Below are positions 5,956-19,685 of a stretch of DNA of 42,109 nucleotides, piece after piece. Under the pieces are notes generated by a model. The model had not been told where the DNA came from. It saw nothing but the letters and a program-made list of their open reading frames with translations, and made no database searches. The DNA is from a virus (lineage: Duplodnaviria; Heunggongvirae; Uroviricota; Caudoviricetes), in IMG/VR virus record IMGVR_UViG_2724679238_000007, positions 1 through 42,109 of that record; one strand, written 5' to 3'. The stretch's first letter is position 1; every line of letters starts with the position of its first letter. A program made the position numbers and the translations under genes.

Positions 5956-6230
5956 TCCACCCTGGTGTGTTGAATGTCAGATATAATCGGCATACTCAAA
6001 TCACTCCTAACGATATGAGTCATCACCAGAAAATCAGGATTAATGCGCCGGACTCTTCCCGGCTGTCACACCGAATCGCCAGGATGGTGAATCCGCAGTC
6101 CGACGCTATGAACGGGGCTTGCACATTCCGGCTACCTGGTTTGTTGCCTGAGCTAGGGGAAAAGGTAACCCCTTTAACGTCACCAGACCGCTAACGACGC
6201 ATGTGCCAGACGCCGTGTTACAACCAAATG

Positions 6231-12867: not shown

Positions 12868-13152
12868 GTGGCAAGTATTGCAACAAAAGACAGCATTTGT
12901 TCGGGGCACGGAGGATTCCCATCCAGGCCTCCTGTAGAGAGTGAACCACTACTTAAAGTCAACGGAGTCGAAGTGTTAGTTGATGGTAAGCAATATGCAC
13001 AGCATACCGATGGAAACAGTACGCACGGTGGGCAAGCTATATCAACCCGGGCATGGTTTACCGTCAATGGTAAAGGGATCGTATGCGTTGGTGACCCTGT
13101 TTCATGCGGCTCTACCGTAGCGTCAGGAGACGGCCTGGTTCAGGTAAGTTAG
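12868..13152 (+). CDS. PAAR-like domain protein (candidate spike-tip protein)
   Basis: 94 aa, GTG start; motifs DSICSGHGG, VNGVEVLVDG and VNGKGIVCVGDPVSCGSTVASGDGLV resemble PAAR repeats with Cys/His metal ligands. Confidence 0.45.
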   Translation: MASIATKDSICSGHGGFPSRPPVESEPLLKVNGVEVLVDGKQYAQHTDGNSTHGGQAISTRAWFTVNGKGIVCVGDPVSCGSTVASGDGLVQVS

Positions 13153-14587: not shown

Positions 14588-14980
14588 ATGTCTGATAAAG
14601 TAACAGTAAAGCAAACTATCAACAAAGCGACTTCGATCTACAAAATTGAACGAATCACTGTTGGTAAGCCAGGGTCTGAACAGTTCCGTCATGCCTTCGA
14701 ACTTGCTGATCAGCTGGGTTTAAAGCACCCGGATTGTATTGAGCATGTATTCCCAACTTATACTGATGCGGAATGCACTCAAGTGCTTACTGAAGAGGAT
14801 TTCTTTAGCACTGAAGAACGAGAAAATGTCGAGCGTTGCATAGGTGTGATTTGCTCTTCGGTGAGCAGTGAGTTATTCCCTGATGTTCCAGAATCTTGTG
14901 GTATTGGATACCAATTCTTGTATGAGGGCGATGAGCTTAAATGTTATGAACATGGTCTTCTTATCGAAAGCGTAGAATAA
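14588..14980 (+). CDS. hypothetical protein (Cys-rich, acidic)
   Basis: 130-aa ORF with AAGGGA SD; followed by a terminator hairpin. Confidence 0.5.
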   Translation: MSDKVTVKQTINKATSIYKIERITVGKPGSEQFRHAFELADQLGLKHPDCIEHVFPTYTDAECTQVLTEEDFFSTEERENVERCIGVICSSVSSELFPDVPESCGIGYQFLYEGDELKCYEHGLLIESVE

Positions 14981-14994
14981 TACGGCTTCCTTCC

Positions 14995-15020
14995 AACCGG
15001 CTTTGTTGGCCGGTTTATTC
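14995..15020 (+). terminator. intrinsic terminator
   Basis: AACCGGC-tttgttg-GCCGGTT hairpin followed by TATT. Confidence 0.45.
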
Positions 15021-15023
15021 AAC

Positions 15024-15094
15024 TTATCCACAGCATAGATCCAATAAACAGATCCAAAAGAGACCCCTAGAAGATCCAAATAAGATCCCGGATC
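15024..15094. promoter_or_regulatory. plasmid origin core: consensus DnaA box plus a cluster of five GATC (Dam) sites
   Basis: TTATCCACA at 15024-15032; AGATCCA/AGATCCC heptamers and a GATC between 15037 and 15094; lies immediately upstream of the iterons and repA, as in P1 oriR. Confidence 0.65.
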
Positions 15095-15135
15095 GCTGCA
15101 GGCCGCGCCATGTCTGGCCTGAAACGTGATCAACA

Positions 15136-15239
15136 TTGACTATATGCGATTTTATGTTGACTGTACACGATTTATTGTTGACTACACGCGATTTTATGTT
15201 GACTATACGCGATATAAACATTGACTGTACGCGATTTTA
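15136..15239 (+). repeat. five direct 19-bp iterons at 21-22 bp spacing (incC-like), upstream of repA
   Basis: TTGACTATATGCGATTTTA, TTGACTGTACACGATTTAT, TTGACTACACGCGATTTTA, TTGACTATACGCGATATAA, TTGACTGTACGCGATTTTA at 15136, 15157, 15178, 15199, 15221. Confidence 0.8.
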
Positions 15240-15315
15240 AAGCCTGAATATTCACAGCTGTTGATAACAGCCATCCAAATTGACGTCAGGCCGCGCCACA
15301 CATGGAGAAACCACG

Positions 15316-16200
15316 ATGCCGGAAGAAAGTAAAGGCTTCCTTAGCGTTGAAGAAGTTGCAGGAAATACAGGAGAAATCCACAGCCTGAAACCCAATAACA
15401 ACAGCACTATACAACCCATCGCTTTGTTGCGCTTAGGTGTGTTTGTGCCAACCTTAAAATCTACCAATGTGGCACTACGTCGCGGATCGTCAGTTACTAC
15501 AAACACAACGAACGCAACCGAAGAACTATCAAGCCTCAAAATTGTTGAGCAGGAAGGCTATGAGGGAATTGAAATTCATGGTCCACGCCTGGATATGGAT
15601 ACTGATTTTAAGGTGTGGGTTGGCATAACCTCCGCGTTGTTTGACTATGCACCTGATGATGACGGTATAATTACCCTGCCATTCTCCGAGTTTGCCGATC
15701 GATGCGGCTATCCACGTAAGCGCCTTTCAAAGGCGTTCCGTAAAAGTATTGATGACTCTCTGACACGCATTCAGCAGACAGTTGTCAAATTCCGCTTCCC
15801 GGCGGCAAAAGGTCATCTCAATAACATTAACGTCAACTTGTTGGCATATAGCAGCCTGAATACCGAGCTTGATGTTATCGAGATCCAGCCGCAGAAACAG
15901 CTATCTGAACTTTACTATGTTGACTATAAGCGAATCCTGAAGCTGAAGATGCTGGATAAGCTCGGGCGCAAAGAGACGGCCAAGGTACTGTATACATTCT
16001 TTGAGGCTCTACCCGCCAACCCAGCACCTGTCAGCATTGAGCGCCTTAGAGCAAGGCTTAACCTCAAATCATCCGTTAGCGTGCAAAATAGCGTTATCAG
16101 AAAAGCCATGAAAGATTTGGAAGCTATTGAATATCTTAAATTTTCAGAGATAAAAAACGGCAGGAAAATCGGCTTCCAGATCCATAAGCGCAATCCATAA
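15316..16200 (+). CDS. repA: iteron-binding plasmid replication initiator RepA
   Basis: ATG at 15316 with GGAGAAA SD; 294 aa; conserved blocks (ALLRLGVFVP, GPRLDMDTDFKVW, LPFSEFADRCGYPRKRL, C-terminal HKRNP) match the P1/RepFIB RepA family as recalled; flanked by iterons on both sides. Confidence 0.8.
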   Translation: MPEESKGFLSVEEVAGNTGEIHSLKPNNNSTIQPIALLRLGVFVPTLKSTNVALRRGSSVTTNTTNATEELSSLKIVEQEGYEGIEIHGPRLDMDTDFKVWVGITSALFDYAPDDDGIITLPFSEFADRCGYPRKRLSKAFRKSIDDSLTRIQQTVVKFRFPAAKGHLNNINVNLLAYSSLNTELDVIEIQPQKQLSELYYVDYKRILKLKMLDKLGRKETAKVLYTFFEALPANPAPVSIERLRARLNLKSSVSVQNSVIRKAMKDLEAIEYLKFSEIKNGRKIGFQIHKRNP

Positions 16201-16202
16201 TA

Positions 16203-16458
16203 TTGACTATATGCGATAGCGAGAAGTTGACTATAGGCGACATTCGTTGACGCTGGTGGATTTTTGCTGGCGTCAATATTCTGTAAGTCGCTATTGAGAT
16301 GGATTTTAGGGTCATTTCATCGCGTATAGTCAACGTTTCTCCCGACAATATCTTACATAGTCGATCTTTGGTGGAGTTAAATCGACTACAGTCAACTTTT
16401 GACTGTGGTCATATCGCGCATAGTCAACTATTCACATTAACCTTCGCGCATAGTCAAC
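16203..16458. repeat. iteron array downstream of repA (incA-like), about 8 copies in both orientations
   Basis: TTGACTATATGCGAT (16203), TTGACTATAGGCGAC (16227), and inverted copies such as CGCGTATAGTCAA (16321), ATCGACTACAGTCAA (16381), ATCGCGCATAGTCAA (about 16414), CGCGCATAGTCAA (16446). Confidence 0.7.
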
Positions 16459-16492
16459 ATTTGCGCGGTTCTCATCAAGCAGTGGTATTGAT

Positions 16493-17302
16493 ATGCAAGA
16501 AGAGAAACAACACTACCTCTACGTTCTGGTGCCGGAGAACGGAGATACTTTTAAAATCGGCATTTCATGTGGTCCATTGGCACGGTTTAAAGGGCTACAA
16601 GTGAGTCCCGATTTTGCGCTTTCACGGGTCTATCGTGGTACGCGTTTGGCAATGGTTAATCTTGAGCGGGCTTTACACGCAACCTTTTTCCCCTGGAATG
16701 CGCCGTGGGAGAAAAGCGCCGGTGGCGGGCATACTGAATGGTTTACACGAGAGTGTCTTGATAAGGTTTTGGCTCATATCGAATATCTAAATGATATGTG
16801 GGGAGGGATTCTCGAGCGCATTAAGTCGAATGATTTACTTCAGCGTCCAGTAGATGCTGCTCGCTCTTTCGAAAAAGAACTGGATGTTACTTCTATCGTG
16901 ACTTTCAAAGATGACGCAGGAATGAGGGACGTGGCTTATGTCTCCATATCTGGCTATGACCCGGACGCGATCCGCGCTCAATGTGAATTGCTGAAAGCAA
17001 TGTTTATGCTTCGGACTAAATATCCCTGGGAGACAGGGCGGGTGTGCTTCCCTATGGAAGAGTTAACCGCCACCATTGATTCCCAGCTTTACCACGATAA
17101 TCCAGAGAAGTTTTTTAGCCTTTTAACCGGTAATGGGCTTAACTGTGTGTCCGGGCTGGGGCGAAGTAGAATCCAACATGCCTCGCTCTTCGGTCCCTTC
17201 TTTTACGATCGACACGGGTACTTTGAGGCTGAACTTCCGGCGCTTACGCGTGCTATAGATACTATCGATTTCGAACGATTATTCGCTGCTCTTAGCAAAT
17301 AA
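16493..17302 (+). CDS. T5orf172 (GIY-YIG-like, MUG113) domain protein with a C-terminal domain of unknown function
   Basis: 269 aa; N-terminus YLYVLVPENGDTFKIGIS...RVYRGTR...LERALHATF...GHTEWF matches the T5orf172 pattern as recalled; inserted between the downstream iterons and the par operon. Confidence 0.55.
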   Translation: MQEEKQHYLYVLVPENGDTFKIGISCGPLARFKGLQVSPDFALSRVYRGTRLAMVNLERALHATFFPWNAPWEKSAGGGHTEWFTRECLDKVLAHIEYLNDMWGGILERIKSNDLLQRPVDAARSFEKELDVTSIVTFKDDAGMRDVAYVSISGYDPDAIRAQCELLKAMFMLRTKYPWETGRVCFPMEELTATIDSQLYHDNPEKFFSLLTGNGLNCVSGLGRSRIQHASLFGPFFYDRHGYFEAELPALTRAIDTIDFERLFAALSK

Positions 17303-17309
17303 CACTGAT

Positions 17310-17330
17310 GCCCCTGAACGGGGCTTTTTT
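17310..17330 (+). terminator. intrinsic terminator
   Basis: GCCCC-tgaac-GGGGC hairpin followed by TTTTTTG. Confidence 0.7.
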
Positions 17331-17470
17331 GTGCCCTCCTTGCAACGCTCAATCGTGCAAAATGAACCAAACATGCAGAGAATGCTATGTACAAGCATCT
17401 GCGCATACATTATTATTTTATGTAGCATTTTTAATTAAATTCAAAAATACAGCATAAAGGATGACTTTCG

Positions 17471-18667
17471 ATGAGTGATTCCAGCCAGCTTCACAAGGTT
17501 GCTCAAAGAGCAAACAGAATGCTCAATGTTCTGACTGAACAAGTACAGTTGCAAAAGGATGAGCTACACGCGAACGAGTTTTACCAAGTCTATGCGAAAG
17601 CGGCACTGGCAAAATTGCCTCTACTGACTCGAGCGAACGTTGACTATGCCGTAAGTGAAATGGAAGAAAAGGGTTATGTTTTCGATAAACGCCCTGCTGG
17701 CTCTTCAATGAAATATGCGATGTCAATTCAGAACATCATTGACATATATGAACATCGCGGAGTGCCAAAATACCGGGATCGCTACAGCGAAGCGTATGTG
17801 ATTTTCATCTCCAATCTTAAAGGCGGTGTGTCAAAAACTGTATCGACGGTTTCTCTGGCGCATGCAATGCGTGCTCACCCTCATCTTCTGATGGAAGATT
17901 TAAGGATTCTGGTTATTGACCTTGATCCGCAATCTTCAGCAACGATGTTTTTAAGCCATAAACACTCTATTGGTATCGTAAACGCAACATCTGCACAGGC
18001 TATGTTGCAGAATGTAAGCCGTGAAGAGCTGTTAGAGGAGTTTATTGTTCCTTCTGTTGTACCTGGGGTTGACGTTATGCCTGCGTCGATTGACGATGCC
18101 TTTATTGCATCCGATTGGAGAGAGCTGTGCAATGAGCATCTACCGGGTCAGAACATCCATGCTGTCCTGAAAGAAAATGTGATTGATAAGCTGAAGAGCG
18201 ATTATGATTTTATCCTCGTTGATAGTGGTCCTCACCTTGACGCCTTCCTGAAAAATGCTTTGGCCTCGGCCAATATACTGTTTACACCTCTGCCACCAGC
18301 AACGGTCGATTTCCACTCATCGCTTAAATACGTTGCCCGCCTTCCTGAGTTGGTGAAACTCATTTCGGATGAAGGCTGCGAGTGCCAGCTTGCGACTAAC
18401 ATTGGTTTTATGTCCAAGTTGAGTAACAAGGCAGACCATAAGTATTGCCATAGCCTGGCGAAAGAAGTTTTCGGTGGGGATATGCTCGATGTCGTCCTCC
18501 CTCGCCTTGATGGTTTCGAACGCTGCGGCGAGTCCTTTGACACTGTTATTTCTGCTAATCCGGCAACGTATGTTGGTAGTGCTGACGCACTGAAGAACGC
18601 GCGTATCGCCGCTGAAGATTTTGCAAAAGCAGTTTTTGACCGTATTGAATTTATCAGATCTAACTAA
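17471..18667 (+). CDS. parA: partition ATPase ParA (Walker-type, large N-terminal HTH form)
   Basis: 398 aa; deviant Walker A (NLKGGVSKTVS); N-terminus MSDSSQLHKVAQRANRMLNVL... matches P1 ParA as recalled. Confidence 0.95.
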   Translation: MSDSSQLHKVAQRANRMLNVLTEQVQLQKDELHANEFYQVYAKAALAKLPLLTRANVDYAVSEMEEKGYVFDKRPAGSSMKYAMSIQNIIDIYEHRGVPKYRDRYSEAYVIFISNLKGGVSKTVSTVSLAHAMRAHPHLLMEDLRILVIDLDPQSSATMFLSHKHSIGIVNATSAQAMLQNVSREELLEEFIVPSVVPGVDVMPASIDDAFIASDWRELCNEHLPGQNIHAVLKENVIDKLKSDYDFILVDSGPHLDAFLKNALASANILFTPLPPATVDFHSSLKYVARLPELVKLISDEGCECQLATNIGFMSKLSNKADHKYCHSLAKEVFGGDMLDVVLPRLDGFERCGESFDTVISANPATYVGSADALKNARIAAEDFAKAVFDRIEFIRSN

Positions 18668-18683
18668 GGAGTAAGAAAACGCC

Positions 18684-19685
18684 ATGTCAAAGAAAAACAG
18701 ACCAACAATTGGGCGAACCCTTAATCCTTCAGTATTAAGCGCATTTGATAGTTCCTCTGCCTCTGGTGATCGGGTTGAGCAGGTATTCAAGTTATCAACA
18801 GGTCGCCAGGCCACATTCATTGAGGAGGTAATCCCTCCGAACCGGGTAGAAGATGATACCTTTGTTGATCAGCATAACAACGGACGTGATCAGGCAGCTC
18901 TTACACCAAAATCATTAAAAAGCATCAGAAGCACCATTAAACATCAGCAATTTTACCCTGCAATAGGTGTTAGACGGACTACAGGGAAAATTGAAATTTT
19001 GGATGGTTCCCGGCGTCGAGCTTCTGCCATCTTAGAGAACGTAGGGTTGCGGGTTTTAGTCACGGACCAGGAGATCAGCGTTCAGGAAGCGCAAAATTTA
19101 GCGAAAGACGTTCAGACAGCATTGCAGCACAGCATTCGAGAAATAGGTCTGCGTTTGATGCGAATGAAAAATGATGGAATGAGTCAGAAGGATATTGCCG
19201 CTAAAGAAGGGCTATCTCAGGCGAAGGTCACGCGTGCTCTTCAGGCTGCGAGCGCTCCGGAAGAATTAGTCGCTCTTTTCCCTGTGCAGTCGGAATTAAC
19301 CTTTTCGGACTACAAAACGCTTTGCGCTGTTGGCGATGAAATGGGGAATAAGGATTTAGAGTTTGATCAGCTTATTCAAAACATATCCCAGGAAATAAAC
19401 GACATCTTATCCATTGAAGAAATGGCCGAAGATGAAGTGAAAAATAAAATCCTTCGCCTGATAACAAAGGAAGCCTCGTTACTCACGGATAAAGGCTCTA
19501 AAGATAAGTCTGTAGTTACTGAATTATGGAAATTTGAGGATAAAGATCGTTTCGCAAGGAAGCGTGTGAAAGGCCGTACCTTTTCCTATGAGTTTAATCG
19601 TCTCTCCAAAGAGTTACAGGAAGAACTTGACAGGATGATTGGGCATATCCTTAGAAAGAGCCTCGATAAAAAGCCGAAGCCTTAA
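18684..19685 (+). CDS. parB: partition protein ParB (centromere-binding)
   Basis: 333 aa; MSKKNRPTIGRTLNPS..., HTH region and C-terminal dimerisation region match P1 ParB as recalled; immediately followed by parS. Confidence 0.95.
   Translation: MSKKNRPTIGRTLNPSVLSAFDSSSASGDRVEQVFKLSTGRQATFIEEVIPPNRVEDDTFVDQHNNGRDQAALTPKSLKSIRSTIKHQQFYPAIGVRRTTGKIEILDGSRRRASAILENVGLRVLVTDQEISVQEAQNLAKDVQTALQHSIREIGLRLMRMKNDGMSQKDIAAKEGLSQAKVTRALQAASAPEELVALFPVQSELTFSDYKTLCAVGDEMGNKDLEFDQLIQNISQEINDILSIEEMAEDEVKNKILRLITKEASLLTDKGSKDKSVVTELWKFEDKDRFARKRVKGRTFSYEFNRLSKELQEELDRMIGHILRKSLDKKPKP

Follow-up and report, generated by a model that had tools for sequence, protein, structure and literature searches.

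A T5orf172 nuclease gene with a predicted Rep WH1-like domain in the replicon cassette of P1-like phage-plasmids

P1-like phage-plasmids are widespread, carry resistance genes, and come with two main replicon types, IncY and p0111, between which exchange occurs. The window analyzed here, a stretch of 42,109 nucleotides from such an element, carries an ORF of 269 aa (16493 to 17302, + strand, ATG start; herein gene X) at the junction of the replicon and the par operon. What does a gene at this site encode, how did it come to be there, and what might it do? A sequence-only reading had described a T5orf172/GIY-YIG-like N terminus and an uncharacterized C-terminal domain and had proposed an accessory insertion into a conserved plasmid-maintenance backbone. 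Gene X is already known from databases and has appeared once in print, as “unknown”; new here are a syntenic family spanning four replicon variants, a deletion remnant, a homing-endonuclease-like population signature, and a predicted Rep-WH1-like domain. A literature search for a link between Rep3 and T5orf172, or for a T5orf172–Rep-WH1 architecture, found none.

Our preferred reading, to which we assign a probability of roughly 0.45, is that X is a two-domain, free-standing nuclease of selfish or competitive character and the last gene of an exchangeable cassette of iterons, repA, iterons, gene, and terminator; the step from this architecture to a target and a consequence is one that we infer. 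The finding is moderately surprising to specialists in plasmids and phage-plasmids. If X, the constant companion of the p0111 replicon, targets rival replicons or gene-less alleles, it would provide a mechanism for cassette replacement and for competition between co-infecting phage-plasmids; if true, the reading would also extend the principle of the ICP1 protein Odn (a nuclease with an initiator recognition module) from phage-satellite conflict to plasmids and define a T5orf172–Rep-WH1 architecture. Were X a decaying passenger, the gain would be limited to improved annotation of a hypothetical gene that is common.

The replicon cassette and the position of gene X

The window is a P1-like phage-plasmid whose local gene order, dmt-rdgC-PAAR-upfB-ppfA-upfA-repA-X-parA-parB-gp23-sheath, is that of RCS47 and SJ46; its backbone is nearest to P1-like plasmids of Escherichia albertii (∼96% identity). 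A 94-aa ORF with a PAAR motif (12868 to 13152) has the same place in all P1-like loci examined. By blastn, homology to P1 ends at 15118, in oriR just before the incC iterons, and restarts at 17369, 19 nt ahead of the Ppar −35; the 2250 bp in between (15119 to 17368, + strand) stand for 1491 bp of P1. These boundaries indicate that a p0111-type cassette holding origin iterons, repA, control iterons, gene X, and its terminator was exchanged as one piece for the incC iterons, repA, and incA of P1. A paper on JL22 reported repA′ (p0111) and an unknown gene in place of repA (IncY) (PMC9603915).

The cassette begins with five direct origin-side iterons (15132 to 15234, + strand; core TTGACTATACGCGA, spacing 21 to 22 bp), followed by repA (15316 to 16200, + strand), which encodes a Rep3-family initiator of 294 aa (Pfam Rep3_N and Rep3_C) with 42% amino acid identity to P1 RepA. 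A mechanical ORF call places the repA start at TTG 15280 (306 aa), and the SJ46 record has the longer form; alignment with a diverged p0111-like RepA (locus L004) and the RCS47 annotation (885 nt) make ATG 15316 the probable start. An iteron-like sequence, TTGACTATAAGCGA, lies within the repA coding region (15916 to 15933; 94% match to the reference iteron), and there is also such a site at the equivalent place in the diverged repA of L004 (offset 792 of the scanned region). Downstream of repA, an incA-like array with the same iteron core (16199 to 16462; two direct copies at 16199 to 16240 and four inverted at 16320 to 16462) ends 30 nt before the ATG of X; the last iteron and this spacing are kept in L004.

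Gene X is followed by an intrinsic terminator (17310 to 17334, + strand), a hairpin (GCCCC-TGAAC-GGGGC) and TTTTTT, located 8 nt past the stop codon and ∼55 nt upstream of the Ppar −35, with a folding energy of −11.9 kcal/mol (z = −2.5 vs. shuffles). A promoter-like site that aligns with annotated P1 Ppar lies at 17388 to 17416 (+ strand) and leads into the parA-parB operon (17471 to 19685, + strand), whose products are 99.7% (ParA) and 97.3% (ParB) identical to those of P1. The ORF, its terminator, and its site between the downstream iterons and the par promoter were thus as the sequence-only reading had described them. In P1, where that reading had par directly follow incA, there are 213 bp and no gene between incA and Ppar, and P7 has 110 bp and no gene. 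Searches of these two spacers for remnants of X (blastn-short and blastx) gave only chance-level matches. The proposal of an accessory insertion into a conserved backbone is not supported as it was put: X is absent from P1 and P7, and the whole 2250-bp rep cassette around it has been replaced along with it. A foreign origin of X by base composition found no support (GC content 47.8% vs. 47.1% for the window).

A search of the + strand from repA to the ATG of X gave no sigma-70-like site, manual inspection of the iterons gave weak candidates only, and no terminator was found between repA and X. Because X starts 30 nt past the last iteron with neither signal in between, read-through expression is likely, and we infer that co-transcription with repA is plausible. 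An Rfam scan of 14900 to 17600 gave no match. The same arrangement speaks for X as an accessory replication or copy-number factor, whose WH1-like domain would heterodimerize with RepA or bind the origin and modulate initiation or handcuffing, the nuclease domain nicking or being vestigial; so does co-inheritance with repA in ∼390 plasmids. We consider such a role distinctly improbable: P1 and P7, like two Salmonella plasmids described below, replicate without the gene, and invariant nuclease catalytic residues would be needless in a pure regulator.

A nuclease domain and a predicted WH1-like domain

The N-terminal domain of X (aa 1 to 115; 16493 to 16837, + strand) matches Pfam T5orf172 (PF10544) over residues 8 through 85 (E = 4.6e-6; 27.5 bits vs. 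a gathering cutoff of 20), in keeping with the original assignment; 38 of 42 aligned relatives match the same profile. An AlphaFold2 (AF2) model built on this 42-sequence alignment has a mean pLDDT of 80.9, with blocks of the N-domain mostly at 90 or above and the C-domain at 50 to 88; a model from three sequences (pLDDT 63.5) was set aside. The predicted N-domain fold agrees with the profile, being a GIY-YIG α/β fold that matches Slx1/HIGLE, UvrC, and I-TevI. Fold matches in BFVD, which cover the N-domain only, comprise phage T5orf172 proteins, CapR-homology proteins, a Hef-like homing endonuclease, and ICP1 ORF88 (Odn). Residues G23, R31, E58, E82, W83, and F84 are invariant in the 42 relatives, T81 is nearly so, and conservation of Y10, K21, and H62 is 90% or more; the equivalence of the catalytic Tyr, Arg, and Glu to Y6, R27, and E75 of I-TevI is drawn from spacing rather than superposition. 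This conservation of the catalytic residues makes it likely that X is an active nuclease. I-TevI, the T4 Seg proteins, and Slx1/HIGLE belong to another subfamily; X has the T5orf172 “KIG” for the second Tyr and a different targeting domain.

In PHROGs the N-domain matches only phrog_2876 (“unknown function”) and the endonuclease family phrog_681, and an NCBIfam search with X returned nothing. None of the 5027 models of PADLOC-DB 2.0 matched X or its closest full-length homologue, P0004, at E ≤ 1. This result weighs against single-gene anti-phage or anti-plasmid defense cargo, in which the GIY-YIG domain would degrade an invader whose DNA or protein is sensed or bound by the variable C-domain. 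We regard defense as clearly unlikely also because the predicted fold of the second domain points to replicons rather than phages.

That second domain (aa 116 to 269 plus the stop codon; 16838 to 17302, + strand) is indeed uncharacterized: it has no Pfam match at E ≤ 10 in any of four orthologues, hence no Rep3_N profile match; it also has no WH2 and no match among PDB sequences. A search of 1.84 billion representatives with the C-domain found P0004 as the sole match. The predicted fold of the X C-domain is a winged helix, and its best fold matches are WH1 domains of Rep initiators (RepE of F, RepA of pPS10, and MSBI1.176; 2z9o and 1hkq are among the matches), with 99 to 105 residues aligned of WH1 domains of ∼125 to 130. 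The repA that adjoins X belongs to this same Rep3 family; X itself, lacking a Rep3_N match and WH2, is no initiator. Two proteins retrieved through N-domain similarity only, P0076 (256 aa; E = 8.4e-14) and P0057 (E = 8.1e-7), have a genuine Pfam Rep3_N (WH1) domain at the position of the C-domain. Together with the fold matches, they give reasonable support to a T5orf172 plus Rep-WH1-like architecture in X, as modeled.

P0076 is a stand-alone T5orf172 plus Rep3_N protein without WH2 (L061, 754 to 1524; also in L062 and L063), apparently outside a replicon, next to genes for a TacA1-type antitoxin and an oxidoreductase. P0057 is encoded on a 2-kb metagenomic contig (L064, 104 to 1771), where an ORF beginning with Rep3_C (WH2) comes 76 nt after the T5orf172 plus Rep3_N ORF; the arrangement resembles either a fusion of a nuclease domain with a Rep3 initiator that has been divided between WH1 and WH2, or a gene broken by a frameshift. 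In the wider family, genes lie between terS and terL of a P22-like phage, beside a prophage repressor, on a mobilizable plasmid, and in islands that also contain Mrr, WYL, or GmrSD genes; mobile elements are the carriers of this family, whose C-terminal halves are hypervariable. The gene for P0024 (L058, 5001 to 5981) has the genes for the small and large terminase subunits of a P22-like prophage on either side, a location where free-standing homing endonucleases are classically found.

WH1 is the dimerization domain of Rep initiators such as RepE and pPS10 RepA. The C-domain of X is acidic (net −5; pI 5.2 to 5.5 in all four orthologues), as is the WH1 half of the window RepA (net −7, vs. +14 for the rest). 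Both points favor the replication factor described above. More generally, the acidity suggests contact with protein, or contact with DNA of a noncanonical kind, more than it does the usual basic type of DNA-binding domain. Comparison of the C-domain with five P1-type RepA proteins (blastp and hhalign) found nothing; with alignments this shallow the method has no power, and it also failed on a positive control, a true Rep3_N against the RepA family. Odn-style sequence mimicry of RepA, the candidate behind this comparison, gained no support from it.

Related genes at the same site, loss, and constraint

Gene X is common. It occurs in 401 plasmids, in 412 (7.6%) of the 5426 E. coli genomes that are complete, and in 12 phage records, with 97 to 100% conservation in the plasmids and genomes. 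At least 80% of the cassette is present in one piece in 391 PLSDB plasmids, where X is co-inherited with repA; as a P1-like flank is found in ∼735 PLSDB plasmids, roughly half of P1-like plasmids carry the gene. Scans of GTDB genomes and IMG/VR found only p0111-type copies of 91 to 99% identity and one weak match in Flavobacteriaceae. Database names for X include “GIY-YIG nuclease family protein,” “T5orf172 domain-containing protein,” and “hypothetical protein.” A copy in the phi456 record (OR339795.1, 39979 to 40788; 99.3% identical) is labeled “terminase small subunit,” almost certainly a misannotation.

Among 1.84 billion representatives searched with HMMER, many relatives share only the N-domain and one, P0004 (43% identical), is a full-length homologue. 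Its gene lies between a p0111-like repA (84% identity) and parA on L004, a P1-like contig with ∼70% DNA identity to the window. Two more such proteins occupy the site behind other initiators: the gene for P0010 (L005) is between a P1/IncY-like repA (83% to P1 RepA, with P1-type iterons GATGTGTGCTGGAGGGA) and parA, and that for P0011 (L006) is between a third RepA type (41 to 48% to the others) and a P7-like par operon. In L006 the 63 nt upstream of parA (within 6070 to 6140) are 94% identical to the P7 Ppar region (L054, 4432 to 4545); a third RepA type is therefore combined with P7-type partition, a further instance of mosaicism at the rep/par junction. The four proteins align end to end, with 33 to 61% identity in the N-domains and 20 to 31% in the C-domains. 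Between the window and L004, X is 43% identical (N-domain 61%, C-domain 31%), RepA 84%, and ParA 89%. L004 and L005 differ from each other much as the window differs from P1: their flanks are 96 to 99% identical, the block of iterons, repA, iterons, and gene is swapped, and the end points are the same.

The gene is also absent from close relatives of these loci. Relative to L005, P1 lacks exactly the gene (positions 5977 to 6993 of L005 correspond to 213 bp in P1), and none is present in L059, a Salmonella plasmid that shares 90% RepA identity with L005. A second Salmonella plasmid (L060), with a RepA 98.6% identical to that of L006, has 11 bp where L006 has 892 bp; it retains the first 11 codons of the gene (ATGAACCAGACAAACGATCTCTATTTGTATATTCC), followed by TTTTATGCCT, which lies just past the L006 terminator. 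From this remnant, as aligned, L060 demonstrably represents a clean deletion, the gene-less state being derived in that lineage. X stands alone between genes that are conserved, and at this one site it is found in some related genomes and missing from others; across the P1-like elements compared it is not universal there, and it has no known function. The same-site genes behind three other RepA variants, together with the L060 deletion, suggest a gene that has long accompanied the replicon and been lost from it repeatedly, more than one that was inserted recently. Its fixed place in the cassette behind four RepA variants, outside the variable regions of P1-like elements listed in PMC9603915, argues further against defense cargo.

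Population data were drawn from 44 full-length copies of X in IMG/VR and phage records (SJ46 is in the set twice). Premature stops interrupt X in eight of the 44 loci (18%) and trace to three mutations of independent origin: TCG>TAG in codon 112 (pO111_3 among others), CAA>TAA in codon 228 (SJ46), and TGG>TAG in codon 68. For comparison, all 45 loci have an intact parB, and 28 of 29 have an intact repA. The pN/pS of X is 0.33 (N-domain 0.24, C-domain 0.37), 5 to 8 times that of repA (0.04) and parB (0.06), and a collection of 15 billion proteins holds truncated X clusters of 205 and 229 members against 1241 full-length members. Given its 97 to 100% conserved copies, the 43% identical homologue at the same site, and this pN/pS, X is a real gene and no chance ORF. 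The pN/pS values and nonsense alleles show that it is under purifying selection, much weaker than that on its neighbors, and is dispensable for maintenance; its evolution is relaxed and homing-endonuclease-like.

These data bear on each alternative. Nonsense alleles in 18% of loci count against defense. A replication factor is hard to reconcile with the elevated pN/pS, with nonsense alleles in pO111_3 and SJ46, with the existence of L059 and L060, and with a C-domain that has fallen to 31% identity while RepA stays at 84% and the iteron core is unchanged. The recurrent nonsense mutations, the clean deletion, and the relaxed constraint would instead suit a functionless, decaying passenger from an old fusion or insertion, hitchhiking with the replicon. 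We think this highly unlikely, because the pN/pS is well under 1, 36 of the 44 loci are intact, and the ORF, the domain order, and the catalytic residues persist where neighboring sequence has fallen to ∼70% nucleotide identity.

Proposed function and probable recent movement of the cassette

A selfish or competitive nuclease is favored over a maintenance gene because X has its own terminator, is exchanged with the cassette, is present or absent at one site, decays or is deleted, and has a fast-evolving second domain with an initiator-like fold. As we envisage it, the WH1-like domain would steer X to a target associated with the replicon of a related P1-like element in the same cell, one without the gene or with a rival replicon; the target could be origin or iteron DNA, or iteron-bound RepA reached through WH1–WH1 contact. 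Cutting would either destroy the competitor or, through resection and repair from the nuclease-bearing copy, convert its rep-par interval, so that X would spread together with the linked replicon. Expression would be low, by read-through from the RepA-repressed repA promoter, and X, dispensable for replication and partition, would decay or be deleted after fixation.

Some observations stand against this selfish-nuclease reading. Typical homing endonucleases bind DNA through basic domains, and the C-domain of X is acidic. L004 has the iteron core of the window, yet the C-domains of the two are only 31% identical, and so the C-domain does not track its own iterons. A tblastn search of PLSDB with the IncY-linked variant found nothing; by this search the gene never accompanies IncY replicons in E. 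coli, which leaves no direct sign of ongoing invasion. Nor was a promoter for X identified.

The literature describes T5orf172 genes as homing endonucleases and states that they “occupy boundaries of genetic exchange” (PMC10448857). Like those of ICP1, T5-like, and other phages, X is a small, free-standing gene between essential genes that encodes the same nuclease domain, is associated with exchange boundaries or tracts, has a modular, fast-changing second domain, and decays recurrently. However, 87% of the phage set have CapR, DUF723, or DUF4397 zinc-finger DNA-binding domains (PMC10448857), which X lacks, and those genes are in lytic phage genomes whereas X is in a plasmid-maintenance module; homing is a putative property of X. 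CapR, from the PLE satellite of V. cholerae, is likewise a T5orf172-family protein on a mobile element. It has been domesticated to a nonhoming role, acting as a repressor through its zinc-finger domain, whereas X keeps the catalytic residues and has an unrelated second domain.

The nearest parallel is Odn (gp88/ORF88) of Vibrio phage ICP1, which joins a T5orf172 nuclease to a RepA-like initiator DNA-binding domain, cuts the iterons of a rival, and selects for swapping of replicon modules (PMC8263062). Odn and X share the nuclease and a module derived from or, by prediction in X, resembling the origin-recognition domain of an initiator (PMC8263062), and Odn, itself among the fold matches of the X N-domain, acts in a conflict of mobile elements with modular, swappable replicons. 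The differences are considerable: the initiator-like domain of Odn is N-terminal, of RepA_N type, and 42% identical to the target RepA, whereas that of X is at the C terminus, is acidic, resembles Rep3 WH1 in predicted fold only, and shows no sequence similarity to the RepA proteins compared; Odn is used by a lytic phage against a satellite, whereas X lies inside a plasmid replicon cassette. By this analogy X could be an initiator-mimicking weapon, a plasmid-borne counterpart of Odn that docks on the RepA–iteron complex or origin of a rival or gene-less replicon and cuts, giving a nuclease-based incompatibility with replicon-specific exclusion or replicon replacement. We hold this narrower proposal to be unlikely.

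Divergence along the window suggests that the cassette has moved recently. Over ∼15.33 to 18.3 kb (repA, iterons, X, and the 5′ two-thirds of parA) the window differs by 0.4 to 2.2% from E. coli p0111 elements, a level that matches the diversity found among E. coli copies themselves, whereas the flanks (upfA; parB-gp23) differ by 4 to 13%. Such low divergence in a diverged backbone points to recent interlineage recombination of a tract of ∼3 kb, by which the cassette and its flanks moved between diverged backbones. Exchange of the cassette could also result from ordinary homologous recombination without any nuclease, a point that counts against the selfish-nuclease reading. In an alignment of 38 p0111 loci, single loci have insertions of ∼1.2 kb at window positions ∼13820 and ∼14568 (columns with 97% gaps), which may be IS elements in upfB/ppfA-upfA.
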